Source of the DNA: Euglena gracilis
Taxonomy: Eukaryota
Assembly: GCA_039621445.1 (NCBI GenBank)
Contig: CP154954.1
Span: forward strand, 31,458,012 to 31,522,011
DNA length: 64,000 bases
Direction of reading: 5' to 3'
Positions 5,401 to 47,713 of the stretch are shown here, piece after piece. Under the pieces are notes generated by a model. That model had not been told where the DNA came from. It did no database searches and saw nothing but the letters and a program-made list of their open reading frames with translations. Within the stretch, counting starts at the first letter, position 1, and the number at the start of each line of letters is the position of its first letter. Made by a program: the position numbers and the translations under genes.

Positions 5401-8400
5401 CGTGCCGGTTGGGGTAGCTGAGGGCGTCATTGTTGGTGTGCCAGAGGGCGTCGCGGACGGGGTGCCGGTGGGCGTGGCGGACGGTGTGGCGGAAGGCGTG
5501 CCGGTGGGCGTGGCTGATGGGGTGGCGGTGGGCGTGCCGGAAGGGGTGGCGGTTGGAGTGGCGGTTGGGGTGGCGGATGGGGTGGTGGTGGGGGTGCCGG
5601 ACGGCGTGGCGGAGGGTGTGCCGGTCGGCGTCGCGGACGGTGTGGCGGAGGGCGTGCCAGTTGGGGTGGGGGCAGAAGCAGAGCTCTGAATTGGAAATAG
5701 GGTCCAAAACGCGCCAGATGATGAAAGGAAGCTGAGAAAAGACTGTCCTCCAAATGAATATTTCCCCCCTTAGTTGCCCTTAGTTGCACTAAGGCTTCTT
5801 GTCTGTTTATGGCCTGCGCGAACTTCGCTTCTGGCCCAGTTTGCTGTTTGGTAAGCCCCCCCCCGGAAACTGTCACCTGAGGGGTCGGTGCGGCTCCAGG
5901 GCAGGGCGTCGCTAAACCCACCCGGGGGGGGGGGTTTCAGCTGAGTGGCTGCAACGTATGGCAAAGGCTGCTGGCTGACCCCCCCCCCCCAGGTCTGAAA
6001 CTAGCCCCGACCCGGGGACGACGACACGGGTGATAAAAATCGAAACTGCACAAATGCCCCACAAAACTGCCAATTATGCAAGAAGTCGATTGTTTGAACC
6101 GAAATGTATCCTTCTCAGCCCACTTCCGACCCATCCCCACCCCATTCTTGTCCCATTTATTGCACCCCAAAAGCAAAAAAAAAAAATCCGTCACTATCCA
6201 TCCGCCCCTCGGGCAGCTGGAAAATAGATAAAACTCGTCAATGGGGGAGGAGGGCGGTTCGAAGCTGGAAAAAGCCCCCTCCCCTGATGGGTGTCCTCCG
6301 GCTAAAGCGACGCACGGCACTGGAAATCCTGACAACTTCCTGCTGTGACAGTTTGGCCGGTACCAGGGACTTTGACAGTTTCCCAGATGGAAAACTGTCA
6401 GGTTCCCTTCAGGGTCACTCTGGGAAAAGGTTGAACACAAGCATTTTGAAGCACAAAAAAAGCCTTAAACTTTGGCAACAGAAATCGTGTGTTTGGGGTC
6501 CGTTTTCATGTACACCTTTGTGCTGTTGGTCAGACATGTAAATCAGGTGTTCAACGAAGGGGATGTCATAAGCCTTTTTTTTTAGCAGTGAACAAACAAT
6601 ACTGTTTATTTGATGGATGGACACATGTGCAACATGGTATGAAATGAATGAACCGTGAATTTTGGCACCTGATCATGCAGTGTATTTTCTGAGAAGCGGA
6701 CAATCGACTCACAAAAATGACGAGGATGCATGAACGCCAAGATGACTGGTTCACTTGTGCAATTGCACAAAGAAAATTGATTGAAGTACAATTCTTTCTT
6801 TTCTGTGTCCCATAGTTTCATGGAATGTGACTGTTCCCCTTGTTGCCCCAAAGTGCCAAGGCACAAAAAAAGTGGCAGGATCTTCCGCCCTCCAAATTCC
6901 CTACACAAATGTCCTTTTGGCCATCTGCCACCCCCACCTCTCAGAGCTCTTAAGGTGGTGTAACTTGAAATAATTGCAGGGAGGGTTAGAAATGATGTGA
7001 TCGTCACCAGGGAATACACGTCCCAAACATATGGCCTGTGCATATAATAAACAGCGAAGAAGCAAAACATGCTGTGGGTTGAGTTGCATTTGTGGAGCCT
7101 TAAACTGCTGCCCTTGTGGGGGGGGGTCCCAGTAAGTGAACGATCGGGGGGATTGGACCTCCTGGCGTTTTCACAACAGGGCCCGAACTCGATTTGTTTT
7201 CACTTCCCCCAAACAAATGTGTAATACAGCATCGCCACTCCTTAGGGCTTGGATAGGGTTATGTTTAGGGTTTGGACTGGGGTTTGGGTTAGAATTTAGG
7301 CCCATGGGCTAAAATTGTTGGCTAAAATTAGGCTTAACTTAGTCCAAATTTAGGCCCAATTTCAGCATAACCCCTAACCTCCCAACTTTGGCCGAACTCT
7401 AACCCGTGTCGCTTTCTCAATGGCAACCACAACCATGATCCTTTGCCTTGAACTCCTCAAAACATGCCAACGTCAGACGATGGACCCCACATCAAACCAC
7501 GGGGACCCCCAGGGGCTCATGTCCAACCATCAGTGACCCCTGGGGCGGGTTGTCGTTGCACACAGGGTTCTGGCCAAAAGAGTGACAACCGAGCAGGGGG
7601 TCGGTTGTTGGACAAGGGGTCTAGCTAGTCTAGGGGAAAAAAAAAGGTTGGAGGGCACCCGGGACTCCCAAATAAGGTCAAATTTTTTCCTTCCGCGATT
7701 TGCAGCAAAAAAAAAAGGGCAACTTGATAATTTTTGCCCAAAAGTGCCAAGATTGGCATTTGGCTTTGGTCACAACCTTTCGGCCCAGCGCTTCGCACCG
7801 GGCAAAACCTCCAAAAAGTGTCCTCCGACTGTGGGGGGGGAGGGTGGTCGTTGGACATGGGGGGTTGTTGGACGCAGGGGGGGGGGGTGGAGTTTAAGGG
7901 TGCCGCTTACGTTTGGGAGTTTCGCAAAACCAGACTGGTTGGCCCACCAAACGACGAAAAAAACAATTTAATATGTCATCTGCCCACTGTGAATAACAAT
8001 CACAATTACAATTTACACCTATGTTGCAAAATGGCCAAATTTGTGAAAATTTTCAAAGTCCCCTCCAGCAGAAGTGCACCAACCCTCAAAAACGCAATTT
8101 GCGCAATTTTTTTTGCAATTTTTCTGCATTGTTTCCGAAGACCTCTGATTTCAAATCCCAGCAGAAATAGGGGGGAAACTTACAAACAGGCCAAAAAATT
8201 ACCAGAATATGTCAAATTTGGCAAAATTTGGCAAGTTTTGGCAAACTTGCAACAAAAAAACAAAAAAGCACCTGAATGCCCTTGTGAAACGCCCAAGAAC
8301 TGGCCGGAACTCTTTTTATTACCTTGCATTTCAGATTCATGCGAAAAATGGCGGAAAGGGGGGGAAATGCGGGGAAATTGCAGAAAATTTGCGGAAATTG

Positions 8401-10334
8401 CAGGGAAATTGTGGAGAATCACTTGAATTGTGGAGAAATTGCGGAGAAATTGCGGCAAAAATTGCGGATATCAATTCCCCCTGCGCCAGTGTGCGAGGGA
8501 GGATACGACACAGCAATGGGGCTCTGTCCTGGGCAGCTGAAGGGGTGGCAGTTGGGGTCCCACTCGGCGTGGCGGACGGTGTCCCGGTGGGCGTCGCCGA
8601 TGGGGTGCTGGTGGGGGTGCCAGACGGCGTTGCGGAGGGCGTGCCGGTTGGGGTAGCTGAGGGCGTCATTGTTGGTGTGCCAGAGGGCGTCGCGGACGGG
8701 GTGCCGGTGGGCGTGGCGGACGGTGTGGCGGAAGGCGTGCCGGTGGGCGTGGCTGATGGGGTGGTGGTGGGCGTGCCGGAAGGGGTGGCGGTTGGAGTGG
8801 CGGTTGGGGTGGCGGATGGGGTGGTGGTGGGGGTGCCGGACGGCGTGGCGGAGGGTGTGCCGGTCGGCGTCGCGGACGGTGTGGCGGAGGGCGTGCCAGT
8901 TGGGGTGGGGGCAGAAGCACAGCCAGGGCTGACAGGTTTGTTGGCTTTGGTAAAGAAAAAATCCACGAGGTGTGTGTATCCAGTGGTTATACACGGGATG
9001 TGCCATTTTCCTGTTGTTGCCTGGGTCGAGAGGAATTCTTCTCCCCGGATTGTTTCCCACCGACCAATTTCAGCGCTCGAAGTGGAGTTAAAGGCCAGGG
9101 GGAAAACCACCATTTGGGGGTTGCTTTAGGGGGTGGTAGGGAACTGGCACCTGGCGGGTTCCCCTTTGGGGACCCACTCATCCTTCTCCCAGATCCCTTT
9201 TCCGAGGTCCCTCTCAGGCCTCCGAGGACTTTCTTTATTTATTTGAAATATTTGGTAAACTGCATGCACCTGACCATCTATTACTTTATGTACCCCCACT
9301 GATCAGCTTCCAGCTGCACACTGTTCTATTCTGCCAAGGGTTTTGGGATCATAAAATTTGAAAACAAAAAAGTGTTGAAGGTTCTATGTCACGTTTTGGT
9401 TTTTTCGAACATATTTGAATTGCCCTGATTTGGAATCGGTGGAAATTAAAAAAAGCAAAATTTGAAAATCTGTGATAAATAGTATCTCACACACCAAATC
9501 AGAAAATTTTGGCCGCCTCTTATGCACCCTTTCGCGGGGGGGGGGGTTCTGTGTGGTTGCACATGGAGTGGTGTGACCTTTGGCTTGGACCACAGGTGCA
9601 TTCAGGTTAAGTCATCAGCTGATTGCAGGATGCGACTCACAAGAGACCGAAACGCTGAGACATTGAAATATGTGTGAAACCCTTTGCAAAAAAAAAACCA
9701 CCGAGGTCTGCATATTTAGCCCCCGAAACTGTCAGGGGCCACCAGTACCGCATTGGTCAGTTTCTTAGTAAACCATTACCAGCGGGGGTGCCTTTGGGAT
9801 TGTGACCTCTTCAAAGAACAATTTCTTCCACATTCATACGCCACAAACAGAAACAGAAGCAATTCATATGGTGAAAAGGATCGTGTATTTTTTTGAGCGA
9901 AATACATTTTTTCTCACAAACCAATAGAATTGCAAAAAGGATTGCCGCCAAATCCTGCTCTCAAATATAGATAGAACCCCCTCCTGAAATGGACCCCCCC
10001 TTACACACTGGCTCCTTCCTGGGCGGCTGAAGGGGTATCCGTGGGTGTTCCGGATGGGGTGGCGGATGGGGTGCCGGTGGGTGTTGAGGAAGGTGTGCTA
10101 GTGGGCGTGCCGGATGGCGTTGCGGAGGGGGTGCTGGTTGGTGTTGCCGACGGCGTGGCGGTGGGAGTGCCGGAGGGCGTCGCCGAGGGGGTACTGGTGG
10201 GGGTGCCAGACGGTGTGCCACTGGGCGTGCCAGTTGGGGTGGGTGCAGAAGCAGAGCGCTGGTTTGGAAACAAAACCCCAAGCAAAATACCGGGAATCTC
10301 ATTTGGGTATCCGATGTTGGGGGCTGGAGTATTA

Positions 10335-10372
<38 letters not shown>

Positions 10373-13300
10373 TATATATATATATATATAATATAATATT
10401 ATATATTATATATATAATATATATAATATATATATATATATATATTATTACTAGAGTATTACAAATATTACTTGGGCACATTTTTCACACTCAATAATAC
10501 CTTTGGGCCACAAAGACGGCGAACAGGAGGTGATAGAGGACCTCCGTGGGTACATTTTGTCTGACCGACACTTCCGGAGATAATTACGTTTTCTTGAGAA
10601 ATTTTCAAAAAATTGATTTCATGACCGAAAACTTCACACCGGCGAAATGACAGAGTCAGGGGGGGTCCGGCCCTGGTCCCACCCACCCCGGGGGTGAGTG
10701 TTCTGAGTTAAAAAGAAGCCCAATGATGACAAAACATTGTGAAGAATAATTTTGAACAAAAACGACAAATATTTTCGGATTTTTGGGGACCCAAATTCAA
10801 GGCCCAAAATGAACTTCAGTGGGGTGTCATTGGCCGACCCGGGGAGGGGGGTTGACTTTTTGTTTCAGAGTGATTGACTGATTTTGGGGTTGGACCCATA
10901 AGCCGGGGGGGGGGGGGCACAAAAAGCCACCAGTGACTCGGCAACAAAGGCCCACCATGAAAAGAATTGGCCACAATCCTTGGCTCCCAAGGTGGCTGAC
11001 GGCTGGGTGGCAGATGGCTGGTTTTGATGAAAAAGGTGAGTCGTTGCTGTTCCTTGGAGCGGAGGTGACCCCCCCCCCCCGCTGGATTGGGGCATTGCCC
11101 ACCGAAAGGGGCCGTGGCGGCGGGTGATGAAGGCCGGCCAGCCCGACCCGACCGTCGTCCAGATATGCGACCCGATCCAGCACGTCCGGAAGGGGCGCTT
11201 AGGCCTTCTGCTGTCCATCTGACCCCCCCCCCCGCCCGCCATAACGTTTGTGCAGACTCCCAGGCCCACTTCACAGCTGTCTATAATGAGGAAATTTCAT
11301 TGTTGGATGTCAACGGCGCATTTTTCGGAGCTTGGAATTTGTGGGTTGGGCGTTGGGCGTGTGGTGTTGTATGTTTTTGTATGTGTGCTGTGGACGTGAG
11401 TGTGCAAGAATCCCCACAAATTCATGCCGCAAACAATCCAAAGGGGGTGGGGGCCAATCCTACCCAGTTTGGACCCATTCGCGGCTGAATAACTTGGGCC
11501 TAGCGGGGAGTTGGGGGTCAAACGGAGGTGATTCGGAAACTAGAAATCCAGTCGCTCGCAACTGAAAAAGAGGATTCTGGGAACGGAGCCGAGATCGTGG
11601 TGATAATCCGCCGGTTCCCGAGGTGGCCCCGAGGGGGGTTCGACCCCCCCTTTTGCCCAAGGGTAAGCTTCGCTCTTACCCATAAAGGGATAAGAGCTCA
11701 GCGGCCCCCCCCCTTGCACACTGGCTCCTTCCTGGGCGGCTGAAGGGGTATCCGTGGGTGTTCCGGATGGGGTGGCGGATGGGGTGCCGGTGGGTGTTGC
11801 GGAAGGTGTGCTAGTGGGCGTGCCGGATGGCGTTGCGGAGGGGGTGCCGGTTGGTGTTGCCGACGGCGTGGCGGTGGGAGTGCCGGAGGGCGTTGCCGAG
11901 GGGGTACTGGTGGGGGTGCCAGACGGTGTGCTACTGGGCGTGCCAGTTGGGGTGGGTGCAGAAGCAGAGCGCTGGTTTGGAAACAAAACCCCAAGCAAAA
12001 TACCTGGGAATCTCATTTGGGTATCCGATGTTGGGGGCTGGAGGGGAATATTACTTGGGCATATTTTTTACACTCGATAATACCCCCCTCCCCCAAAACG
12101 TACATTTTACCATCATTTCTGTCCTTTGTGCACTTGATTTTAAGTTGATATAGGTGACAGCATTGGGGTAGCCGAAGCCAGGTATAGTATTTGGGAGGAG
12201 TATGTTATTGGGAGTGTATTCTTTCGGGGTTAGGCTGCAGCGCCCTATGCACTGTAGCTTTACCCCCTTGGTTCAAGGCTGTGCCATTGGCACAGAGGAT
12301 GTGTCAAAAACGTCCTCGTCGCAGCACTTCAAAAAGAAAAACCTCCAACTGCTGTTGGGATGGGGCAGGTGAATGGCATGGTGTGCGTTGGACAGGTGGT
12401 GGGAACACGTGAAGGGGGTCTCAGTGGGGACCACAGTGCTCAGCAATATCCACAGGCGTGACGAAACACTTGCGGGCAGAAATCACACAACGTTTTCAAA
12501 CTTGGTCAAACTTGGGAAGGTGTCACGGGAGATTACCGCTGGGGGGGGGGGGATAGAAAAGATCCCCCCCCCCAAGAAGTGAGTTGTGTCCTCCCAGTGG
12601 GCTGGCCCCAAATAATGGGGCCAACTGGGGAGCCACAAAAAAACTGATGGTCCAATGATTTGGGCCAGTTTTAAATTCGGGGGTCGGCAAAACGAGGGAA
12701 GTGGCAACAGATGTGGATTCCCTGGGTTTCTTTTACGACATGGACCCCCAAATGAGTATTTGGCTGTCTGGAGGGGTGTATTATTCGGGCATTCGAAGCT
12801 GGGGGCCAGGGCAGGGAATACTTGGGTGTGCTATATTATTTGGGCATATATTTCAAATTCAAAAATGGCCCCCAAAGTGCAGGTTTTTACATTATTTCTG
12901 TGGTATACACATTTTTGACACTAAGTTTAGGCTGACACTGCCTCAGAATTTTTTCCAAACCATGCTCTTTTCTAGGGAAATTCCCTGTCTTGCTTGCATT
13001 CCGTCTCTGGGGTGACGCAGGGGCAGAATACGATTTGGACAACCAAGGTCCTGGGCCAAGGGACTTTTGGTTGTTATGTTTGGGGTTGGTGGGGGGGGGG
13101 GGTTAGTGGCTACTCCATTAGTGGCTTTACTCCAATTGTTGGTTGTGCATGGTGAGCAGATGGACAAAAACTTGGGGTCAAAAAAACGTGGGTGGGAGCG
13201 TTCTGGGAGTAGGAGAGTTGACCAACCAGTCGTCTGACCAGCCAGAACCCCTGGCCACTACTGTTTGGGCTTTGCGGGACAGACTTGACGGGACAGAGGA

Positions 13301-16300
13301 TTTTGGGAATCGAGAAAAACGATTTTCCAGCGCACATCTATGGGGCTCCGTCCTGGGCGGCTGAAGGGGTGGCTGTGGGCGTGCCTGATGGCGTGGTAGT
13401 TGGGGTTCCGGTGGGCGTCGCCGACGGTGTGGTGGTGGGCGTGCCAGTGGGAGTTGCCGAGGGCGTGCCCGTGGGCGTTGCCGACGGCGTGCCAGTGGGG
13501 GTGCCGGAGGGCGTCGCCGAGGGGGTACCGGTGGGGGTGCCAGAGGGTGTGGCGGACGGTGTGTTGGTGGGCGTGCCGGAATTGGGCGCTGCAAACTGCC
13601 GAAGTTTTGGCCACAATGGTCGTTGGTGCGCATCGATAAAGCGTTTTTATGCGTGGAATTTGTTCCGCTCAAACTCACACTGATGGAACTGAGTAGATCT
13701 TTGACGAGGTAGCCTGAATTTTTGACATTCAAAAATGTCAAACATTGCAAATAATGATGGAGGCCACATGAACTTGGCTTGTTGGCAGAAACGCGCATTG
13801 AAATACCTTTGGCTCCGCCGTTTACTTGCAGCCAGGGCGGCGCCTGACGAACCTCCCTCCCCACCCGAGTGCCCACCTCAAAGGCGGGAATAAAGCTGTT
13901 GGTTGAAGGGGTTGCAAATGGAAAAAAGCTGCTCTTAGGTGGCGCATCTCGCACTTCACACAGAGTCGGCTTGCTCCTTTGCACATTTGTGCAAAGGTGC
14001 CACTTTTTGGGAAATCCCAAAGTGGTGCCCATACCCGTAAAATGTGGTTGGGATGTAGTCTGGAACCCAGGACCACAAGGGAAATGCAAAGACTTCGAAC
14101 ATGAGGGTACCTTGGAGCAGGTGTCCCCACAGCATACAGGGCACGAACACCTCGCATGTGTGTTTGAGAACATCTTACGGCTGCCTCATGAACTTCACGA
14201 TGCCATACACTTTGACTTTCAAAAAAGAATTGTTGGTTACTTTGCACAAGTGCACAAAAGAACCACTTGCGCAAATGTGAACACAGGAATGTGCACACAG
14301 GAACCACTGTAACTGCCACAATGGTTTTTGCGCAGCTGCTGGAACGGACAGTTCACCTGGTTCACAAATGGTTCCTTCGTGCATTTGTGCAAATGAACAA
14401 ACAATGTTCCTTTTCGCATTTGCGCAAAATATTATTGTGCGATACCAGTTAGGAATAGGTGCAACAGAATTTGCTGCAATTATGCAAATACATCAACACG
14501 TTAGATTAGTGGAAATTGAGCATGGCAAAGGAACTGCCTTCCGGGCCCGAATTTGGGCTTCTGCAATTGAGCCTGTGAATAACCATTTCTGACCCTGAAG
14601 CATTAAAATAAACGGAACATAAGGTTTCACTGGTGGGAAAAAAATGGGTTGAAAAGTGCCCTTTACCCCTGGTCATTATGTCGAAAAGTGAGGTGCAGAA
14701 CATTGCTTGCGAATGGAACCGCTTGCTGACTGGGAAAAAAAATTGTGTCCAGGGAGGTTCAGGGGCGTGATGCAATACGTTGACATGATTTTCTGGCAAA
14801 CTCAGATATGCTGTGCAAACATCTCGACTTTGTGGACGCGCTGTTTCCACTGTCCTCCTGTCTCAGAAGACCACACTGTTAAGGCCTCGGCGATGAAGTT
14901 AGGAAAAATCACGGATGAACTGCTCCTTTGAGCAATTGCACAAAGGAAGCACTCAGGAAACACAGCAATGTTCATGGGGAGGGGGTCCAGCACCATCGGA
15001 ACACCTGAATGGTAATTATTTTCTAGCGCGAAAAAGGCAGGCATATGAGGTTGTTGGTTGCTTTTGAAAATGGTTCCTTTGCACATTTGTGCAAAAGAAC
15101 ACTGTTTTTTTTTGCTGCTATGCGAGTCTCACAGAATTTCAGTGTAAATGGGTTGATTTGGCCGACCTACCACAGAGCTGAAGTAGTAACCAGAAATTCC
15201 AGAGCTTTCTAACGTTCCGTTTCAACCTGCAAAACAAACTCCTTTCAAACCCACACGATGCTGCATGGCAAACAAAATGCAAGAAAAGGGGACCTTTCAC
15301 CCAGCCTCCAGACCACCTGGCAGTTGCCAGACAGGAAATGGGACCAGGGGTTTTTGGGGTTTTGAGTAATTTTGTGGAATCCATTGATCCTGGATATTAC
15401 CTCCCCCCCCCTTGTCTAAGAACCAGAAAAGATGGGTAAGAACCGGGGGGGTGGTGCTTCTTTTGCCAAAATATGGGTAAGAACCAGGGGGGTGGTGCTT
15501 ACACAAGGGGGAAAAATTTGACTGCAAAAAAAATCCGGCGCTTCGCGCCGAAAAGGAAAAATTCCCCTTAATTTGAAGGAGCACTGTTGAACTTACACAC
15601 ATTTGGATGCAGAAATCAACAATACCTCACCAAATCAGGTCTCAGAAGTTGCAGAAATTTCGAAATTTTTGAGAAATTTCCCTTAAAAATGCACACAAAA
15701 TAAAGCTCCCCGTGACGATGACCTGTAAAAAGATGGGTAAGAACCGGGGGGGGGTGCTTAGACAAGGGTGGTGCTTAGACAAGGGGGGGGGGGGAGGTAA
15801 CTCCAGGAAACAAGAACTATCACCATGTTTCGAAGGGTCAAAACATCAAATTTCAGACTTTCCCCTGGGCTTCACCCCCGAGAAATTGTGCAAATCTGCA
15901 CATACAGGGCCCTGTGAAACAGGCAATTCAAAAAATCAGGACCCCAACCCCCCAAATCAAAAAACGAGTTCCTTTGCACAAAAGCGCACAGGAACACGAC
16001 AAAATTTAAATGCTGGTAAGGAATAAAAACTTGCTTCATTCACTCAACGGGTGTCATCTGTCAAATGAACAAAAATTGCAAGTTTCCCCAAAGACTTTCA
16101 ATTAACCCCCCCCCACTCAAAGCATGGAGGGCGAATGGCTCACACAGACAGACCAGACCGTTGATTTCATATGGCGTGGTGCCCCCCTGAACAAAACCCG
16201 AGATCCACTGCCTAAGGGGTGAGGTTCCTTCCGGCTTAAGGGACGACCTGATTACAGATTAACTTTCTTCCCACAAAGAAGCCACGCAATGCATCCGACA

Positions 16301-19300
16301 CCTGGGGCAAGGTCGACACTTTTTCGGAGGGTCAAAAGACGGTCCTGGGACCACGAGAAGGAGATGGACATGTGCATTAAGCGCCGCAAGGTAAATTAAA
16401 GATGTGCATTTTGGAGACCTATACTGGGGGGGAATTTCGTGCCAGAGATATTCTGCGGCGACAAATTTCGCGGGCGACAAATTTCGCGGGATTCCTTAAA
16501 AATGTCTGGAAATATTTCGCGGGATTTTTTTTCTGTGAGTTTTTGGTTGAACATCGTGAACCATGAAAGATGGAGAGTGAAATGCATCCTCCAATGAATC
16601 AAGGGACTGGACACCTCCAGAACAACAAAAATCCTCAGGAAGCAGATGCCTTGTCCGAGAGGGTTCACCTAATGTTGAAAAACACTCAATATTCGCAGGA
16701 AAAATTTCGCGGGATTCCTTAAAAATGTCCGGAAATATTTCGTGGGATTTGCTTCCGCAAAATTTGTCTGGCAAATTTTCTCTAGGGCAAAATTCACCCC
16801 CCCCCGGAAGTACCCATCACAGGGCAGTGGGAGTCGAAATGACGTTGACGCTCCTTCACTTAACTGGCACAACCAAAAAAACGGAAGGATTTGCAGCGCC
16901 CGAAACAGATGGTGTGGCAGTCGGAGTCCCACTTGGCGTGGTAGTTGGGGTTCCGGTGGGCGTCGCCGACGGTGTGGTGGTGGGCGTGCCAGTGGGAGTT
17001 GCCGAGGGCGTGTCCGTGGGCGTTGCCGACGGCGTGCCAGTGGGGGTGCTGGAGGGCGTCGCCGAGGGGGTACCGGTGGGGGTGCCAGAGGGTGTGGCGG
17101 ACGGTGTGTCGGTGGGCGTGCCGGAAGGCGTGGCCGTGGGCGTGCCCGAGGGTGTGGCGGAGGGCGTGGACGTCGGTGTTTCAGATGGGGTGGCGGTGGG
17201 GGTACCGGACGGTGTGGCGGAGGGTGTGCCGGTGGGCGTGGCAGACGGCGTGGAGGACGGCGTCCCGGTCAGACCTCTCCTTAGTGTGTATCCTAGGTGC
17301 ACAGGGATACACAAAAAATTTTTTGGCGATACACAAGGATACACAAATTTTTTTTTGGTGATACACATGGATACACAAAATTTTTTTTGGCGATACACAG
17401 GATACACAAAAAAAAATTGGCGATACACAAAGAATACATGAATACACAAAAAATAATACAAAAAAGGACGGGTTGATCTGTTGACATCATTGCCGTAAAG
17501 TTGAGCGGACATTGGCCCCGGCTCAACCCGCAAAAGCGTGGCAGGGAATCTCACCCTGCTGCTGTGGTAGGGGGAGGGGCGCTACTCCCTCGCATGGCAA
17601 ATGCAGAGCCCCGGTACATTTGCACATGCCCATACCCCGGCTCACCTGTTTTTTGATTTTTTATTTTTTTTGACTTTGCATTTTTTTGATTTTTTTTTGC
17701 TTTTTAGAGTTTTTTTTGGCACTTGTCAGATGATCACACACATTTGGGATTGAAATTGTCAGTTGGATGTCGATCTAAGGACGCGTTTCTTGGCATCCTC
17801 CAATAACCTTCTCACACCAGGTGGAATGCCCAGACGACTCATGTCTTCCACGCTGAGAAATTGAATTGTTTCTTTGGTGTCAAACCCCTCATTCCGCAAT
17901 GAAGTTGCAAAACGGCCGAGAATCGGATTGTTGGTAACGAGATCTTGAAACCATGAGCAGGAATACAACGCACTGTCTGGGGGGACATTTTGTGGCTCCT
18001 CTTCTTTTTTTTGAGGGACGATTGGAGGAGGGTGAACTGTCACAGATGCAGCTGACGATGTTCCCTCCGAATGTTCATTCAAATAAGAAGAAGCGGAATC
18101 AGAATTTTCTGATGTACTCTCTGTGTCTCCATCACTCTCTGCATCAGAAGATGAAAACCCCTCCGAGGAGGAGTCCACCTCGTCAGCCCGGGAGGTCCGC
18201 AACTGCCTTTGGGCTGTCCTGCGGTCGCAGGAACCAGCCCACCGGCGAACTGCTTCCGCCACCAACTCCGCATCGGGACAGGTGCTGGTTCGCACCGCCA
18301 CCTCGTCGACGACGTGGTTCCTCGCAAGAGAAGAGCGCCGTGGATTGCAGACAAGCTTGACAATCGAGTTTAATACAGGTTGGCGTGTCACACTGTGGTA
18401 TCCTGTCAACAGAAGCATTTTGCGGCAGGCCATTTCCACAGAGAGCTGCCTGGGGCTTCCAATGGATGAACACACAATGGTGGCGGGTTAGAGGATGGCG
18501 GCGGGTTAGAAGCGGTGGTCAGAGAATCTGACAGATGAGAAACCTTGCAGCCCTCTCTGGAGTGCTTGTCAAAAAAAAAACTGGATGAAAGACCAAAAGA
18601 TGACGCCAACCTGGTTGAGTTGCTCGCAATGTGTTTGGCTGAGGGGAACCGTGCATTGGCAGAGATGGTTGTGAACCTTCATTCCCACTTTTAAGATTTT
18701 CATACATTTGGTCGCGCAATGCACAACCAACTCTGGGCACAATCGGCAAGCACATTCCAAAATCAATGCAAAAATATCTTCCATTGTAACACTGTGTAAC
18801 AAAAGTCATGGAAGATACTTTGGACGCTTGGTGATCTTTTCCTTGTGGACTGCAGGCTGCAAACTCCCAAGTCCGCACCACGTCAAGGGACCGGATTCGA
18901 CCCGATTTGGACCTGCTTGGGGGGAGCTCTTGACACAATTTTTTTGCCACTGAAATGAACGAAACGTAAGTAAAATGAACGAAACGTAAGTAAAATGAGG
19001 GGTCCGAACGAAAGAAACAAGTTGGGGGGGCACTTTCACCCGTGGTTGTGTAGCGGATGGTCAGAATGCGTAACGTTCAAATAACTTTCGAGTGTCGAGC
19101 AAAGCGAGGGGGGGGGGCGGCCCGAAGGGCACGCTTACCCCCACGAGGTGTGGCACGGTGCGGCGCACGGTGCAACGGTGCGGGCAACGGGGCAGCGGTC
19201 AGCCGCGTGCGTCTGCCGCATCACCAACGGGGGGAGGGGCTTTAGAGGCCCCGTACCACCCCCACCACCGCGGGTCTCCTCCACGATGCCTCCGCGGTGA

Positions 19301-22300
19301 AGGTCCGCGTATGTGTAAGTCGTGTGTTGTTGCAATGTGGCTGGGGGTCAAAAAAACAAACGGGGGGGTGTATTGGGATAGGTCGTCTCACAGCCCGTCT
19401 TGCCAAGGGTTGCGTTGCAACTCGAAAGTTGCACGGCAAGCCTTAACAAGCTCAAATGCACACACTCCCCTTTCTGATTTTTGGCTTTTTTGTTGTCCTT
19501 AAGGAACTTTCCGACTTTTTTTGAACGTCTTTTTTTTTTGACGTCTCTTAGAACCAAACCACCTTTGTGGTTTACCGCTTTTTTTTTTGTTGTTGCGCAA
19601 CTTTTTTTGTGGGTTTCCACCTCTTTATCCAACCGTTCGAACCACTTATTGATTGCCTTTGTGTGTGTTCGTGTGTCTTTCGATCTGTTACCCGCTGCAG
19701 ACGAGTACCAAAAATCAAAAGATCGAAAAAGAAAGCGACCCCGCAACCTGCGGGACCGATTCCCCACGAAACTTGGCGCCTTGAAAAAAAAAACTGAAAA
19801 AATCTGAGAAATGGAGAAAACCCCTGAATTCCTCACACGGAACCCTCCCGAATTCTCTTTTTGAAATACGCCATGAGGTCGATTTTCAAATTTGCCTCCT
19901 CGGCGTAAACAAAACATTCTCGGGCGTAACGATGGAAAAAATGCCCGATGGGTTCCCAAGTGTTATCCGATTCATCCCAACCCTTCCATTTCACAAGAAA
20001 TTGCCATTGTCCATTTGGACCTTTTCTATGTGAAATAATTTTTTCCACAACATATTGTCCGGGGGTAGCTTCCACATCCTCGGTTTCGCTTTGGTAAAAA
20101 TTCAATGGTAGGGGTTCTCCAACGAATTTGTCTTCCGCATGCAATTTCAATTGTGTGATGTGCACGCTTTGCATTATACCAGGTTTCACCTCAACCTGGT
20201 ATGAACCTTGACCCAAACGTCGTTTGACCTCACAAGGACCCAACCAACGGCTTTTCAAGTTTGCTTGCAAATTGGATGGACGCAAATACCAAACTTTCTG
20301 CCCAATGTCCAAAATTGGTTTTTCAGCCCTTTGAGAGTTCAAAGCCTCAAAACGTTGTAAATGAAGGGCGTTCAATTTTTCAGCAATTTTTGAATCCAAC
20401 TCGGACATTCTTTTGAAAAAATCTGAAGCTTCCTCCGCTTCGCGGGGAATGGGACGAGGAAAACCGGCCAATAGCATGTTTCGTCCAAAAACAATTTCGT
20501 AGGGGGATAAGCCACTTGGCCCAGGGATGTTATGAAATTTCCTCCTCACCAATGGCAAAATTTCAACCCAATTTGTGTCCATCTCGTCGCAAACTTTCCT
20601 TAGCCAAGTTTTGAATTCTTTTCCTTGCACTTCCGCCCTACCGTTGGCTTGATGGTGATACGCTTGCGCCTTTGCGCTTCGTATCCCCATGCAACCGCAC
20701 ATCGTGAGCCACCATGCCCCTGAAAATTGGGGGCCTTGGTCACTCGTGATGACCGTTGGCAAGCCAAATAAATCCAACCACCGATTAAACATTTCCTTGG
20801 CCACCGCCTTAGCCGTACACCCTTTTCTCCTATGGGGTGTTACTATTGTCCAACCGCTTAGGCGATCTACACAAACCGCCATGCAATCAAATTCTTGCCC
20901 GTCAAATTTTACACGGGGCATGTTAAAGAGGTCGATCGAAACACTTGACCCCAAAAATGGTGGTATGATGGTGGGACGCAAAGGCCCCTTCAAAGAAAAA
21001 CATGGGGGGCTGTGCGCTTGACAAATTTCGCACATTTTTGAAACCGACAAAGTGATTTCTTTTGCCCCCACCAAAGGTGAAAAATGAAAGTGTTTTGTCA
21101 TTTCCAACCACAACCTTTCCCCACCCACATGTCCCACGTGGGCGTGGTACTCCCGGACAAAAGGTCCAGTTACACCGGCGGGTACACACAAAAGTCCTTG
21201 GAAAAATAGCCGGTTGTCCAAAATTTGAAAATTTTCAGGCCAATTTTCCGAATGCGGTTTGTGTAACTCCTCCCAAATATCCTTAAAATACGCACACCGT
21301 GCATACAAAGTGGACCAATCCCGGTGCATCACAGGTTCCTTGGACAAATTTTCGTCCTCCCCCCCTTGATTTTCAGGGCCACCAAGGGGAAAATGCTGCC
21401 CGGGAAAGTTTTCCGTCTCCCCCCCTTCCTCCACTTCATTGCCCATGGTATCCACAGGGGAGATCATTTTTTCCAACACCGAAATCTGCCGTGAAAAATC
21501 AAAATCAACAACTTCACCGTTTTTGTGCAAGCGAACAACCATGCAAGCTCGTTCCATTTTTTTCTCATCGTTCATGCACCAGTGACATCAAGACCTTGAA
21601 CACCCGGAAAATGCAATTGCAACACTTGTAACTGCTTTGTGACCTCTGTGTGGTCAAATTTCAAATCAGATAATGGCCATGTCCGTCTGTCAAACACACT
21701 GGCACCCCACCCTGAAACCGTCTTGAATAACGTTGGAAGAACAGCCCATTGCGCTTGTGTGGAAAGTGAAAGAGTGGTCAAAATGGCAGCCCAACGCTCA
21801 TAAATAACCATGCCGCCCACCAGCAGAACACTTTGGCTTTTTTTCAACAGATTGCGTGCCTTTCGTTGTTGCTTATTTGGGAATTGGAATTCACCCAAGA
21901 ACACCTGGTATGCTTTCAAATTATTCAACCAAGCATGAGCCGCCGCGCGTTTCCAAAAGATGTACCTGTTTTTTTTGGACTCTTTTGAACTTCAACAAGC
22001 GTTTGCGCCCAACAGGCACCTGACCTTGGTTGATGTGATACCCCAAATCACGGGCAACCTTGCGCAGTGCGGCCCAGCGCTTCGTGGACACGCTGAACAG
22101 GCGAGCTGTCTTGGTGAGCAACGAGTTCAAGCGCTTCGCCGTGGCTCGCACCTGTTGGGCCTCCTGATCATCCCGGTCCGCTTTTGGAACAGCTGTGACA
22201 TCAAAATCAACACGCTGTGTTCTGTGGGAAGCACAATACCACTGGATTGCATTTGGCGCTTCTTGCTGAATATCCTTGTGCAATGCATGGAGCAAAACAG

Positions 22301-25300
22301 ATGCACCGTCAACACACAAGGCAACCAAATTGGCATCCAACCAGGCGGTGACATTAACTCCAGCAAAAACTTTGGCCACGGCAGCTTTAACAGATTGTGC
22401 ATCTCGCCCTTCACCAAGTATTTCCTCGACACCAACAACAAACTGGGTAAATGTCTTTTGGCTGAAAATCCGGGCTGTCACGGAGACCCATTGACGGCCG
22501 GCCTCCGTCACCTCATCGATCATCACTGCCCGCGCCGTTGCCAGCGCCCACAGCTTGCGTGTGTGCTCCCTGGATGCATCAGCAAGATGCTTCAGGACCA
22601 CTGGGGTGTAGCGAGAAGCGTAGCGCAGATCATAATCCACCCCATTGGCCTGCTGCAACTCCAACAAAGGTCGGAGTTTGGTGTAGCTCAAACCATTCCT
22701 TGCCATGAACAGAACTGTCCGAAATAACACCTTTGCCTTTGGAATCACTGATGCTGGTAAGGAAATCATGGCCTGGGATAAAGATGTGTTCATTGAATTC
22801 ACCATTCCAACAGCAGCAACGTGATATGATCCATCCTCGTGGTTCTTGACATTCCGATAAAAAAACAATTTGGTGGGCAGCATGAGGGCGTTCTTTTTTT
22901 CCCCCCGCCACAAACTTTGGGATGTTGTCTGAAAGCATGGCACACAGAGCACCACATTCCCACAGCTGGATCATGCTGGAGCCACGGACGACCATTTTGC
23001 CAATTACTTTGGAATATTTTTGCTTTCATTGGCCTGTCACGGCCAGGCAATTTCAATTTCTTTCTGGGTGGGACATTGGAATCTCCAGGGGGCGATTGAG
23101 GGCTGTCGCTCTCCATGTCCTCCTCCGATCCCGCCTGGTTGTTGTCCTCGCTCCGCACCGGCGCAGAAGAAAAAGCAAGAGACATTTGCTTCATTGCTGT
23201 GAGGAGAGACTGAGATACACAGGGATACACAAAAATTTTTTTGGTGATACACAGGAATACACAATTTTTTTTTTGGCGATACACATGGATACACAATTTT
23301 TTTTTTGGTGATACACAGGATACACAAAAATTTTTTTCGGCGATACACACTAAGGAGAGGTCTGGTCCCGGTTGGGGTGGTTGCAGGGGCAGAGCTTCAA
23401 GGAACACACTATAACTCTCCCAGCGCACAAATGGCACATAACGTTCAACAGCACTCACCTCTGTTAAATTCTTGATGCTCTCTCTCCCCCCTCCCCGAAA
23501 TCTTTGCCCCTTGTGCAAGCGGATTTGCTGCACGATGATTGTATGGGTGTACTCGTGTCTTTCCATTTGCAAGGAACTCACTTTTGTTGCCAGTGTTCAT
23601 GTTGTCCTCGTTTTGAAAATACCCCAGAAAATTGTCCTCAACTTGATGCTCGCTGTCGGGAAGAGAATGCCATCACCCTCTTCCAGGATCCTTGGGCCTT
23701 GGGCCCTCCAATACACAAAGTATAAGGTAACAAATTGGGCAAAGCTGAGGAGGGGGTGACAATTGTACACTTGGGTAAATGGAAAATGAAATTTCTATTT
23801 GCATTGAAGTACATTTTTGAGTACTTTGAAAGCATGTGTAAACCCAAAGAGAAACTCATACAAATGTGTGTGTGGAATTAATGACCTCCCCCCCCCTTGT
23901 CCAACGACCACTAATGTTCGTCTCTGACCGGGGGGGGGCAGTCGCTAAAATGGCCAATGTTCGTCTCCGACCAGGGGGGTGGTCGTTAGACAAGCGGGGT
24001 GGACCCCAAATCGGAGAAAAATTTGCCATAGATGGGGGCATATGGCCATTTTTGGGCTGTTTTTGGCCATTTATGCTATTTCTTGACTACGGTTGGCCAC
24101 TTTTGGCCATTTTTGGACATTTTTGGGGCACTTTTGGGAATTTTTAGGCATTTTTGACCGCTCTTTGCCATGTTTGGTCGCTTTTGGCCACTTTTGGCAA
24201 CTGTTGGCCACACTTTGGCCCCCTTTGCCCATCTTTGGCCACTTTAGGCTGTTTTTGGTTACTTTTGGCCATTTTTGCCGTATTTTTGCTATTTTCGGCA
24301 ACTTTTTGGGCACTTTTGGCCATCCTTTGCCCATTTTAGGCCATTTTGGGCTATTGTTGACTGTTTTTAGCCAACCTTTAGCAATTTTGGCCGAACCAAC
24401 ATCGTACACAAAAAGATCGTCTCTGACCGGGGGGGGGGGGGGGGTTGTTAGACAAGCCAGGTCGTTGGACAAGGGGGGGAGGGGGGGAGGTATATTAATT
24501 TTTTGTGCGTTGCAGAATAAACGGGGCAGGGGGCAGAGAATTGTCTGGCATAGAGAGAGGGGTGACGTTTTCAGCGGGTGACAAATCAGCCAGAACGGGA
24601 ATCGCAGTGGTCTGCCCTGGAGGTTCAGCAGATGTTTCGAAGGGACTCAAACATGTTCACGGATCGACCTTAACCCCCGAAATTTTCTTCCCCGACTCCT
24701 CGGAAACCGAGCCTCCTCCGATGGTCATGGGAATGACAATAACAAAGCAAACAAGACCAATGTATGGCAAAGGCAAGACCTTTCCTTCAACCACTTCACC
24801 CACTCCATGGTGGCATTCGGGGAAGGGGAAAATGAGAAAAATGGAAAGAAGTTGCCAGATTTCCTTTGAATTGCCAATCAGGTTTAGAATAGGGGGGGGG
24901 GGGCGATCAGGGCAGATGGCTCTGCCCTGGGAGGCGGACGGTGTGGAGGTTGGCGTGCCGGTTGGGGTTGAAGAAGGGGTGCCGGTCGGGGTCCCGGATG
25001 GGGTGGAAGTGGGGGTGCCGGACGGTGTGCCCGACGGGGTGCCCGTCGGCGTGTCAGAAGGGGTGGCGGTTGGTGTCCCAGTCGGGGTGGCTGCAGTGGC
25101 AGGGCCCACAGGGCCATACAATTTTTTTTAACTGACCCCTTACTGGGGGGATCACTTCCATTCTTCCAAAAAACAGTCACTCACTTTTTTCGGAAAACCA
25201 GTCAGTCACTGCCCCCCCTTGGGGTGGTCGGTCACTCTGAAATCCAAGGGAAGTTTGACCACAAACGGGGAAAAAAGGCCAAAAAATTGCTGGTCGCTTG

Positions 25301-31300: not shown

Positions 31301-34300
31301 GGGGGGGGGCAACACCCCCTCCACCGACAATGTCACCACGCAAAAAAAAAAGATTCACCAACATAAATCCAAAAAATATGGGAAGGTGGTCGCTCGAGCT
31401 CCTGGAAAAATGGGAAGCTGGTCGTGGGATGGGGGCCACACCCCACCAGACAAACCCGTCAGTGATGTGGGGGGCTTGCCGCCTGTCCCAACCACCCAGA
31501 AGGCGCCTGGGATTCCCACCAGGCTGTTTTTTTTTACCAACCCGGGGGGGTCCGGAGTGCCTTGGGGTGCCTTCCCAGGCAAGCCCTGCCCGCCCCCCTG
31601 GGGGGTCGGATTTTGACCTGTGCCCAGGCACATTCCTTTGAAAAATAGGCCATTTTTGGCTCCCTGGCGCCTTTGGCGCCGGGGTCTGTGCTAAGGCACT
31701 TTTGGCCGTGTGCCTTACCCCCCCCCCCCCGGCCGGGGTTGGCACCCGACTAAAATACAGCCTGATTCCCATCCAGCCACAGTTCAGGGGGCAAGTGTTT
31801 GGGGAGTGTTTGGGGCTTCAAGCTCCCGGTGCAGTCACAAATTTGAGCCCAGTACCGTGTATGACAAGGGCTGTACGGGAAGGCCTGGTGGGGGGAGGTC
31901 GACCCCCCCACCACCCACCAACCAAAGGGTTTCGAGTGTTTTTGCAGCGCCACCTGTTGTGCCTGAGCAAGGGCATCTGCCTACGGCGGGCCTGGGCCAG
32001 CAGTTTGGGAAGCCGGACGGCCCAGGTGTGTGCACACGACGGACAAGCCAGCGTGCGCATGATGGGTTGAGAGGGAAAAACGCGAGGAGCAAAAAAAAGG
32101 CAGAGGCAGAAAATATGAGGGGCAGCTGAGGCAGTTTCAATGCAGATTCACCCTCAGCCTCTCCTCCCCCCAGAGGATTGAGGTGCCACTTTCTCGTGGA
32201 CCATTTTTGCAGGTCAAGTGTATTAACCGGCGCTCACCGTCACGCACGGCTCAGCCCTGGGCAGCAGAGGGCGTGGCCGTGGTGGAGGCGGTGGGAGTGG
32301 CGGATGGAGTGCCCGAAGGGGTGGCCGACGGCGTCGTGGTGGGTGTTCCGGTTGGCGTGGTGGACGGTGTGCCGGTGGCCGTCGCGGACGGCGTGCCGGT
32401 GGGGGTGCCAGATGGCGTGGCGGAGGGTGAGTGCGTCGTCGTGGCGGAGGGTGTGGCGGGAGTAGGCGGCGGGGAGGTAGCCCAGAAATATGAATGAATG
32501 TGAGAAACTTATTTACCCCCCCCGGACAGGGTTGGATGGGAAGCCTTGAGGGGGGGGGGGGGGTCGGACCCCCCCCCCTCCTACCTCGAAACTGAGGAGG
32601 GGCCGAAATTTTTTCGATTTCATGGACGGGCAAAGGGCCGGAAATCGGGTCGAAATCGGTCAAAAATCCCTGATTTTTCTTTGAAAATCGATCCAGAAAT
32701 GCTCATTTTTTTTGAAATTTTTTGAACATTTTTTTTGGGAAAAATACCAACACATCAAAAAATGAGCAATATGGCCAAAAGTCAGCAAAAGGGGTGTTTT
32801 TGCTCATTTTCCGGCGCACAGCGCCGAAAGAAAATTTTCTGCTATTTTTGGCACCTGTCAAGGAGGGGGGGTCCGGACCCCCCCCTCCCAACATCTAGGG
32901 GGGGGGGGTGGTCCGGTCCCCCCCTACCACCTTACCCCCCTAGGGGGGGGGGGGGGTCGGGACCCCCCCCCTACCACCTACCTCAATACCGAAGGGCTTC
33001 CCGTCCAACCCTGCCCCTGGGGCATTGACCTGACAAGTCAGCGAGTACGGGCGCGAGAGATTATCCAGAGTCAAAAATATTTTCCAGAAAAAAATCAAAA
33101 ATCTCTGGGGAGAAAAACGCAAAAAAAAAATGCAAAAACTTAGGAGGAGGCTCTGGAGCCTCTTGAAATGTCGTTTGAGGTTGGAGGAAGCTCAACAGCC
33201 TCCTCAAATGTTGTTCGAGGGGGCCCTTACTTTGAGGAGGAGTATCCAGGACCCCCCAAATCTCAAATTTTCTTCCCAAACTTCCGTCCAACATTTTTTG
33301 TACTTAGGACAAATTTCCGCCCAAAGAAGTGCCTGGAATGGCATTTTGGGCCGATTGGGGGAAACTTTTCCAGCCTGGCTCTTCGCGCCTGAAAAAGAAG
33401 GTCCTCTGGTCCCACCTGCCCTTCGTTGAACCCTGCCCCACCCCTTCCCCAAGGGAAGTCGACCGCCCACCCACCCAACCCCACCCAAAATCAACCGAAA
33501 CCCCCAAAAGACATTTTCCGGCCCAGCTTTCGGTCGTGCTGGACTGATCCATGGGGTCCCCCAAAGCCTGGGGACAGGGGCCCGCAACCACCCACCCACT
33601 CTTGAAAACCGAAACCTCCCAGGGGAGGGGTTACGCAAGAGTTAAAAGAACGAATCTACCATCGCATGTTCTTGAAGTCTATGTTCTGGGAATGACAAGT
33701 AGGTGTCAATGGCATTTGTGTTTTGGACGGGGGGGGAGGGCGGGCAGCAATCCTGCAAATTGGACAGTGGCAAACTATCCATTTCCATCGAACAAGTTGG
33801 CTGGAGGGGGGACCTTGATTGGTGTTTTGACTACTCAAAGAGTACCACAGGCCAGACAACTTCCCCGGCACGGAGGTTTCCAAAGCGGAGGTAGGAAAGG
33901 ATGCCAATAATAAAAAATGCAAAATTGGGGAAGGTTGGGGTATTCATGAGCAAACATACATTATCATATCTCAAATAGAAATTGGGGGGCAAGGTGTGCA
34001 TGTTTCGAGCGGGAAGAAATGTTGGGCGGAAAAAAGGGTGTTGAGGAAGTGTGCACTTGCGTGGCTGGCCCTCTGCGCCACCTAAACAGAAGGGGTGCCC
34101 GAAGGCGTGGCTGTTGGGGTGGCGGTCGAGGTACCGGATGCAGTGGCAGTCGGCGTGCCGCTGGGGGTGGGCGCAGGGGCAAAGCAGCAAATACCACACC
34201 ACACGGCGCTTTTGTGGGTGCAGCATGCTCAGAACCGGATCTGGACCTATTCGCGCCACTGCAGAACCTCGAAGGCGTGGAGCAAAGTCGGACGCACAGA

Positions 34301-45496: not shown

Positions 45497-45892
45497 CAGG
45501 GTTCGATATAAGGACAGGTGGGGGGGGGGGTCCGGACCCCCCCCTGCGGGCCAGGAGGGGGGGGGGGGGGGGGGGGGCACCCCCCCCCCACCTAAACAGG
45601 TGCGCGGTCTGGGTTTCAGAATTTCGGCCCGGCGCAAAGCGCCGGGCCGAAAATTTTTGACCCCCCAAAACGACCAAAAGTGCCATTTTTGGCACTTTTT
45701 GGGCAAAAATGTGCCAAAAATGCAAAAATTTTCGGCGCAAAGCGCCGGAGGAAAAAAATGACCCTTTTTGGGGGGGGTCCCGGGAACCCCCCCGAGGGTC
45801 GGTCCGGACCCCCCTGCGGGCCAGGGGGGGGGGGGGGGGGGGGGACACCCCCCCCACCTAAACCATGTACGCCCTCCTTATATCAAACCCTG
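45497..45892. mobile_element. hAT-type MITE (TIR CAGGGTTCGATATAAGGA), upstream of gene 1
   Basis: TIRs at both ends; perfect 8-bp TSD GGGGCAGC (45489-45496; 45893-45900). Confidence 0.93.
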
Positions 45893-47276: not shown

Positions 47277-47713
47277 CAGGGTTCGATATAAGGAGAGGGG
47301 GGGGGGGGTGGTCCGGACCCCCCCCCCTGCGGGCCGGGGGGGGGGGGGGGTGGGGGGGACACCCCCCCCCACCTAAACAGTGGTGCGGTCAGGGTGACCG
47401 ATTTTCGGCCCGGCGCGAAGCGCCGGGCCGAAAATATTTGACCCCCCAAAAGGACCAAAAGTGCCATTTTGGGCACTTTTTTGGGCAAAAATTGGCCAAA
47501 AATGCAAAAAATTCTCAGCGCGAAGCGCCGGAGGAAAAAATTGACCCTTTTTGGGGGGGGGGGGTCCCGGGTACCCCCCGAGGGTCGGTCCGGACCCCCC
47601 TTGCAGGTGGGGGGGGGGGGCCGGACCCCCCCTGCGGGCCAGGAGGGGGGGGGGGGGTGGGGGGGACACCCCCCCCACCTAAACCATGTACGCCCTCCTT
47701 ATATCGAACCCTG
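47277..47713. mobile_element. hAT-type MITE, same family as 45497-45892
   Basis: Same TIR and interior; perfect 8-bp TSD GGAATGGT (47269-47276; 47714-47721). Confidence 0.93.

Follow-up and report, generated by a model that had tools for sequence, protein, structure and literature searches.

The nonconventional introns of euglenids have been known for decades, and their origin is still called unclear, with a source resembling MITEs (miniature inverted-repeat transposable elements) suspected. Such an origin is proposed in PMC3935182; the papers examined also mention repeats likened to target-site duplications ('TSD-like') and a share of 84.4% 'slidable' introns. PMC12501133 reports that about 72% of the 649,158 introns of Euglena agilis are nonconventional, and describes knock-in experiments in which CAG, CTG, the 3-nt and 5-nt spacers, the pairing and a purine as first base of the acceptor exon were each needed; combined, these features sufficed for the splicing of five fully artificial 50-bp introns. 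A 64,000-nt stretch of the Euglena gracilis genome (assembly GCA_039621445.1, contig CP154954.1, positions 31,458,012 to 31,522,011 of the forward strand; here called the window) carries a 6,095-bp element at 17270-23364, which we regard with high confidence as a hAT transposon copy in an exon. The copy was inserted recently, is structurally damaged and belongs to a multi-copy family of hAT-superfamily DNA transposons in euglenids, and its ends, together with the duplication outside them, have every cis feature known to be required by the published splicing code.

The hAT elements (Ac/Ds, hobo and Hermes, with a zf-C17orf113 subgroup) end in (C/T)A(A/G)NG and produce 8-bp target-site duplications, and internal deletions with filler letters are the Ds-like pattern among them. 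The Euglena element is like them in its 8-bp duplication, its short inverted ends starting with CAG and its subterminal repeats; in its zinc finger, its DDE core with an all-helical insertion and its C-terminal Glu region, with a Hermes-like fold modelled for a relative; and in the deletion derivatives with filler letters found in its family. It is unlike them in that its family escapes both the hAT models of Pfam and a profile search among Protein Data Bank (PDB) sequences, and in having a predicted SAM-like domain at the C-terminus, subterminal arrays of the same orientation and a predicted nonconventional intron within the gene. The maize element Ds offers a likeness of another kind, a hAT-family insertion in an exon with removal at the RNA level, which in Euglena is predicted. 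Giroux et al. are said to have described in 1994 how Ds is processed out of transcripts as an intron, reportedly by the spliceosome at cryptic GT-AG sites and imprecisely. The removal predicted in Euglena, unlike that of Ds, would be exact (element plus 8 nt) and would depend on a signal that is not of the spliceosomal type.

With the euglenid nonconventional introns, as presented in PMC12501133 and PMC3935182, the element shares 3 nt followed by CAG, CTG followed by 5 nt, the paired ends, the acceptor purine, the lack of GT-AG borders and the flanking direct repeats of 'slidable' introns. It differs from them in its length of 6.1 kb with a transposase gene, in the perfection of its 8-bp direct repeat and in that its removal is a prediction; nonconventional introns are expected to leave as RNA circles. 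Introners and MITE-derived introns are described from Micromonas, Aureococcus, Amoebophrya, Polarella and Fritillaria in the review PMC11282704, which gives no hAT link for euglenids. What they have in common with the Euglena element is their nature as DNA transposons bearing inverted ends and target duplications; they become introns in bulk, and the duplication supplies part of the splice signal. In contrast to the Euglena element, they are mostly short and non-autonomous, have duplications of 3-5 nt or other lengths and mostly use the (adapted) spliceosome.

Insertion into a coding exon and the nonconventional splicing code

The inverted arms of the element, 17270-17292 and 23342-23364, are complementary at 23 of 23 positions, start with CAG and end with CTG, as seen both by direct reading and by a repeat search. 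Outside them lies the target-site duplication, GTCCCGGT at 17262-17269 and again at 23365-23372, identical at all eight positions and not extended by the adjacent base on either side. Even when three mismatches are allowed, the 23-mer of the ends has only these two sites in the window, while the number expected from 100 shuffles is zero. GATACAC occurs eight times under the left end (17306-17422) and eight times under the right end (23214-23342), where the last copy is within the inverted repeat; elsewhere on the same strand of the window there is only one copy. Both arrays have a period of 32 nt and run in the same orientation, which is unusual.

The insertion is genuine and is present, at the depth of unique flanks, in an independent public DNA run from 2018. 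A 573-nt contig of this run covers 23339-23911 with no differences at a depth of 20.2, the contigs of unique flanks having depths of 16.7-19. All copies of the locus in the run seem to carry the insertion, as judged from contigs, which drop rare variants, and from the best 15 of 112 contig joints. That the structure is no mobile element, having arisen instead as an inverted repeat by chance or through faulty assembly, has a practically negligible probability: the 23-mer is expected zero times by chance, the right junction is reproduced exactly by the independent run, and parts of the element are multi-copy with deletion derivatives.

The host reading frame is on the minus strand and consists of Thr/Pro/Ser repeats in many exon modules, which extend at least over 1987-26091. 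The transposase gene is on the same strand, and the element is in sense orientation. Four paralogous exons in the window open with ACCCCAACTGGCACGCC directly after the intron end GCTCTGCTTCTG and 5 nt; since these are uninterrupted sister sites, the insertion is 11 nt inside the exon. The order on the gene strand is the upstream intron, ACCCCAACCGG, the element and GACGCCGTCC.

Read on the gene strand, with a slash at each predicted border, the element and its surroundings are ACCGG/GAC CAG ... CTG ACCGG/GACGCC. CAG is at +4 to +6 after a 3-nt spacer and CTG at -8 to -6 before a 5-nt spacer, both supplied by the element with its duplication. The ends can form 23 consecutive base pairs (duplex -45.4 kcal/mol), and the first base of the acceptor-side exon is a purine, G at 17264. 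Nine registers are possible across ACCGGGAC, and borders of the GT-AG or GC-AG kind arise in none of them. The neighbouring upstream intron has the same geometry, 3 nt and CAG at one end, CTG and 5 nt at the other. Because the two spacers are a single 8-bp duplication split into 3 and 5, the predicted removal would be scarless; from the published code and the structure of the element we infer that 3 + 5 = 8 is the arithmetic of hAT duplication.

An earlier note on this DNA, made from the sequence alone, had described most of this arrangement. The perfect 23-bp repeats from CAG to CTG, the perfect 8-bp duplication and the GATACAC arrays were all confirmed by reading and repeat search. The claimed position within a mucin-type coding repeat is borne out by the host frame and the sister exons, and the intron-like geometry without GT-AG agrees with the neighbouring intron and with the published code. 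Excision of 17265-23367 gives ACC GGG ACG CCG TCC, as the note had said; any perfect duplication, however, would restore the frame in this way, so that the result says nothing for splicing.

Another sequence of this geometry, a predicted intron, lies in the transposase gene itself. It is 246 nt long, reads AAC CAGGTTGGCGT ... ACGCCAACCTG TATTA followed by A, and has 11 perfect pairs. It is located directly after SQTHCEQL and contains stops when read through. Once it is removed, the window protein aligns without a gap to residues 696-755 of the relative P0004 across the junction (blastp 3e-38). The relatives come from contigs of 3.1-4.3 kb that have the look of transcripts. The gapless homology is support for the idea that sequences of the 3 + CAG / CTG + 5 geometry are removed in this organism and that the transposase gene depends on such removal; it bears on the geometry and not on the removal of the 6.1-kb element. 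The 246-nt intron is itself MITE-like, with 11-bp inverted ends (CAGGTTGGCGT) and a degenerate flanking repeat, 5 of 8.

The following chain of events can be envisaged. Intact members of the family would move the damaged copy in trans by hAT cut-and-paste transposition, which would leave the 8-bp duplication. On transcription of the host gene, the CAG and CTG tips of the inverted repeats would pair as RNA. The paired tips, joined by 3 nt from one copy of the duplication and 5 nt from the second, would constitute a complete nonconventional-intron signal, and the nonconventional splicing machinery would then remove the element and 8 nt, restoring exactly the reading frame that existed before the insertion. 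We give an even chance to the whole chain, in which the hAT copy is excised from RNA as a nonconventional intron whenever it is transcribed.

The transposase gene and its family

When relatives are mapped back on the window, the transposase is encoded by one minus-strand gene running from ATG at 23194 to the stop at 17759-17761. The 349-codon frame at 21921-22970 has eight full-length relatives of 719-922 aa with 45-57% identity. All eight share the architecture. In the window, where the frame had to be stitched together as the earlier note had said, the parts follow one another as an acidic N-terminus, a zinc finger, the core (MIDEV, CVDGAS), CxxH, a region of helices, the Glu motif, an acidic/Ser-rich linker and the last domain. 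The catalytic Asp, Asp and Glu (MIDEV, CVDGAS and HCEQ) are found in the window frames, at invariant or aligned columns.

A profile of the eight relatives matched 799 proteins of a representative library at E<=0.001. Ten long matches, picked from the best 150 of these, were checked against Pfam. PF05699 (Dimer_Tnp_hAT) was above the cut-off in seven and had E<=0.01 in nine; zf-C17orf113 had E<=0.01 in all ten and passed the curated cut-off in six; a SCAN domain was present in one. Comparison by hhalign of the euglenid alignment with 14 such proteins gave a probability of 100% and, across 628 columns, an E value of 1.5e-47; the two Asp motifs, CxxH and the Glu motif were all aligned. In the Glu region the family has SQxSCER and the PF05699-bearing proteins have STAxCERGFS, the window reading SQTHCEQ. 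Relatives of this kind have zf-C17orf113 at the place where the earlier note had claimed a ZnF_TTF. Structure prediction pointed the same way. The AlphaFold model of the relative P0001, which is 55% identical to the window frame (39-row alignment; predicted local distance difference test score, pLDDT, 85.5; predicted template modelling score, pTM, 0.74), had Hermes transposase in all of its ten top PDB matches, with E values from 4.6e-10 to 1e-7 and template modelling (TM) scores by target of 0.44-0.60 over 566-639 columns. ISCth4 (2.4e-4) and then the P element transposase (0.01) followed. The Hermes-like fold, an RNase-H-like core split by an all-helical insertion domain, is that of the model of P0001 and not of the broken protein of the window.

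The transitive profile link and the fold of a relative thus indicate that the transposase is a divergent hAT. Three results count against so simple an assignment. Pfam scans of nine frames of the element and of the eight close relatives returned no hAT model (none at E<=0.1), and the profile of the relatives found nothing meaningful among PDB sequences; because both direct searches were blank, the assignment is transitive. Moreover, the element ends in CAGAC, which agrees at four of five positions with the hAT end consensus, the fifth base being C where that consensus has G. Neither the 23-mer nor the protein alignment had a matching locus when metagenomes were scanned.

The C-terminal 70 residues encoded in the window (17762-17971) are modelled with pLDDT >90, and SAM domains occur throughout their top structural matches. 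The best SAM match has Z 8.8 and a root-mean-square deviation of 1.9 A over 65 residues, a Z value common for helical bundles, and Pfam SAM_2 appears as a weak hint in one relative; the last domain of the transposase is accordingly modelled as SAM-like. We know of no described hAT transposase with such a C-terminal domain. It is common to the relatives of 862-922 aa, and those of 719-741 aa are without it. The part of the gene preceding the 246-nt intron has two extra stretches relative to the relatives, both on the minus strand: one of about 87 nt near 18740-18860, which is in frame and includes a 14-bp hairpin (18771-18821), and one of 61 nt near 18650-18710, which shifts the frame. Neither could be accepted as an intron, as there is no CAG/CTG pair in the right register.

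The gene of this copy is disabled by a nested foreign fragment and a deletion. The fragment has Pfam matches to Chromo (4.1e-13) and, under the cut-off, to the integrase core rve (1.1e-6). A contig of the 2018 run joins 18961 to 21574 at a depth of 279, equal to that of the adjoining family sequence, and other family copies must therefore be without the fragment; with it removed, the minus-strand frame is continuous and has no stop across the joint. The integrase-chromodomain repeat to which the fragment belongs has a summed DNA contig depth of about 10,000-16,600, compared with 17-20 for unique sequence. Since other copies of that repeat continue past 21566-21568, the fragment is truncated, and one of its edges has a 9-bp microhomology with the flank; we infer that it is a repair-type filler rather than the product of integration. 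A few RNA reads fall on it. Near 21710-21740 about 68 codons of the helical insertion domain, present in the relatives, are missing, and at 21710 a family contig continues with 202 letters of sequence unlike that of the window. Two frameshifts of 1 nt are both in homopolymers, G6A7 (22894-22906) and A8 (21969-21976). The A8 run is one A shorter in the family contigs than in the window, and both frameshifts may be errors of long-read assembly rather than mutations.

The family looks mobile. Contigs from parts of the transposase gene have depths of 279-983 compared with 16.7-20.2 for unique flanks, about 15-55 times as much, a depth ratio that is not a calibrated copy number. The window copy has 12 differences from the family contigs over 1,650 aligned positions, and the protein collection yielded no full-length relative closer than 57% identity, and so no sign of an intact member of exactly this family. 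At least five internal-deletion joints are present in the DNA contigs, counting that from 18961 to 21574; the other four contain 1-8 filler letters, namely 17361 to 23288 (8), 17402 to 22906 (1), 17478 to 21896 (1) and 18250 to 22978 (3). The form deleted from 17361 to 23288 would be about 177 bp long, the size of a MITE. Two deletion joints were each seen in single RNA reads, which is too few to build on.

The earlier note had taken the element for a transposase-bearing, master-type copy, and had overlooked the nested 2.6-kb fragment, the internal deletion and the frameshifts. An autonomous 'master' with a working transposase that drives an intron-generating family would agree with the whole gene order being readable from the start codon to the SAM-like domain, catalytic Asp, Asp and Glu included, and with the homopolymeric nature of both frameshifts, which could be assembly errors. 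A gene split by 2,612 bp of foreign sequence that other copies lack, as the joint from 18961 to 21574 shows, and short of about 68 insertion-domain codons relative to both the relatives and the family contig, makes such a role very improbable. The same note's description of the protein as a hAT transposase survives as to superfamily, through the profile and the Hermes-like fold, but not as a direct Pfam hAT-dimerisation match, which none of the window frames has.

RNA evidence and competing explanations

Splicing was looked for in two raw-read RNA-seq runs, about 5-6% of each being read (1.93 and 1.24 billion letters). Over 13.2 kb around the element they gave 99 and 120 reads, of which only 17 and 14 were at least 99% alike to the window; most were 95-99% alike. 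The host gene is barely, if at all, expressed in both RNA samples, which bears, though not decisively, on the earlier note's caution that the gene might be untranscribed. Neither the element nor the three control introns are marked by RNA starts, ends or loose ends, at a depth of <0.7. A further run, with the doubtful label 'RNA?', has a depth profile parallel to that of the DNA run. When the interrupted exon was used to look for a spliced product among proteins, there were 286 hits, all of them low-complexity PT-repeat proteins and none near-identical.

Several observations weigh against removal of the element from RNA. The RNA depth of the flanking exons is 0.04-0.67 per strand class in both runs, and no joint was found in the 13.2 kb either at the element or at the three control introns, a depth too low to give the comparison power. 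The element, which at 6.1 kb contains a gene, an internal intron and a repeat nested in it, is far from the introns of about 50 bp in the experiments that defined the code, and a micro-exon of 11 nt would have to survive upstream of it. The automatic restoration of the frame has been mentioned above. Finally, the host gene may be a silent or redundant copy in a tandem array, in which an insertion is simply tolerated.

The last point leads to the principal rival, an ordinary disruptive insertion into a silent or redundant tandem mucin-like gene, with RNA removal absent or inefficient; ends of CAG and CTG beside a duplication of 8 bp would then match the intron code only incidentally. The near-zero depth of host-exon RNA in two of two runs is what it would lead one to expect, and the gene consists of many near-identical exon-intron modules. 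The insertion is young, since its ends and duplication are perfect, and selection has consequently had little time to act on it; a restored frame would be seen in any case. Set against this are the sufficiency of the published code for artificial introns, with no feature of that code missing in the element, the full flank depth of the element in the independent DNA run, and the fact that the family's gene itself evidently loses an intron with this geometry. We consider a disruptive insertion distinctly possible, if on the doubtful side.

Surroundings of the element and the origin of nonconventional introns

The features of the element and of its immediate surroundings are collected in Table 1.

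Table 1. Coordinates of the element, its genes and the neighbouring host exons and intron in the window
Feature	Position	Strand	Description	Evidence
Downstream part of interrupted exon	16890-17264	minus	Thr/Pro/Ser repeat; 3' end approximate	
Left target-site duplication	17262-17269		8 bp, GTCCCGGT; on the gene strand ACCGGGAC	
Unit predicted for removal by the code	17265-23367	minus	6,103 nt, GAC + CAG...CTG + ACCGG	
Left terminal inverted repeat	17270-17292		23 bp, CAG start	repeat search, shuffle control
Left subterminal array	17293-17460		8 GATACAC, 32-nt period with A/T runs	repeat search
Last exon of transposase gene	17759-18370	minus	acidic/Ser-rich linker and SAM-like domain (predicted, 17762-17971), stop 17759-17761	blastp to P0004, 3e-38
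Predicted nonconventional intron in transposase gene	18371-18616	minus	246 nt; acceptor exon starts with A	
Segment with C-terminal hAT motif	18617-18961	minus	catalytic Glu; extra stretches relative to relatives	
Nested foreign fragment	18962-21573	minus	2,612 bp; 584-codon integrase and chromodomain frame (19833-21587)	
5' two-thirds of transposase gene	21574-23194	minus	ATG 23194, zinc finger, both catalytic Asp (MIDEV, CVDGAS), CxxH	
Right subterminal array	23214-23341		GATACAC, orientation of left array	repeat search
Right terminal inverted repeat	23342-23364		CTG end	repeat search
Right target-site duplication	23365-23372			direct reading; 573-nt DNA contig across junction
Micro-exon	23368-23378	minus	11 nt, ACCCCAACCGG; would remain between upstream intron and element	
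Upstream nonconventional intron	23379-24932	minus	TCC + CAGGGCAGAGC ... GCTCTGCCCCTG + CAACC	

The host modules are near-identical and arranged in tandem with a period of about 3.2 kb (1987-2511, 5098-5769 and 8337-9125, minus strand; also 10001-10405 and 11540-12067). The ends of the nonconventional introns are identical among the modules, and introns have therefore spread here by segmental duplication as well. The upstream intron contains periodic sequence of the GGCCAAAA type. Repeats internal to introns, at 24025-24465 and 15205-16086, have a summed DNA contig depth of 100,000-240,000 and carry most of the RNA reads of the region.

The window is rich in small elements whose ends and duplications are of the hAT type. 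In a scan, 404 CAG...CTG pairs were complementary at 10 or more of 12 bases, and in four of them the flanks are perfect 8-bp duplications: the hAT element, 45497-45892, 47277-47713 and 55927-56359. A further one, 31520-31764, has 7 of 8. With flanks offset by 10 nt as the control, none of the 404 reached 7 of 8. The start is CAGGG in 45497-45892, 47277-47713, 55927-56359 and 32527-33013, the last with a 6 of 8 repeat, and CAGGC in 31520-31764. These five small elements are 245-487 bp long with CAGG... inverted ends, and 45497-45892 and 47277-47713 belong to one family.

No transposon superfamily or transposase is named for euglenid introns in the papers examined, and nothing relevant was found on Euglena together with hAT elements or transposases, subscription journals and supplements being outside the scope of that search; the sliding-distance figures in the supplement of PMC12501133 could already show a peak at 8 nt. 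We tentatively propose, at a little short of an even chance, that the nonconventional splicing code of Euglena is the footprint of hAT transposition, in which CAG and CTG would be the tips of the inverted repeats and the 3-nt and 5-nt spacers one shared 8-bp duplication. A further thought, that a descendant of a hAT transposase with the SAM-like domain helps to recognise the RNA hairpin, is very improbable at best.

The element provides a concrete candidate for the origin of nonconventional introns, namely a hAT family that includes a member with a gene, derivatives resembling Ds and a form the size of a MITE, and with it the question of intron origin becomes directly testable. The link 3 + 5 = 8 would explain both scarless removal and the 84% of 'slidable' introns. 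If the code is indeed such a footprint, every insertion of the euglenid hAT clade into a transcribed exon would start out as an intron that can be removed exactly, be it full-length, Ds-like or of MITE size, and the clade would be the long-sought source of the nonconventional introns that make up roughly 70% of the introns of Euglena. The RNA processing of the host would then neutralise a whole transposon superfamily at birth.

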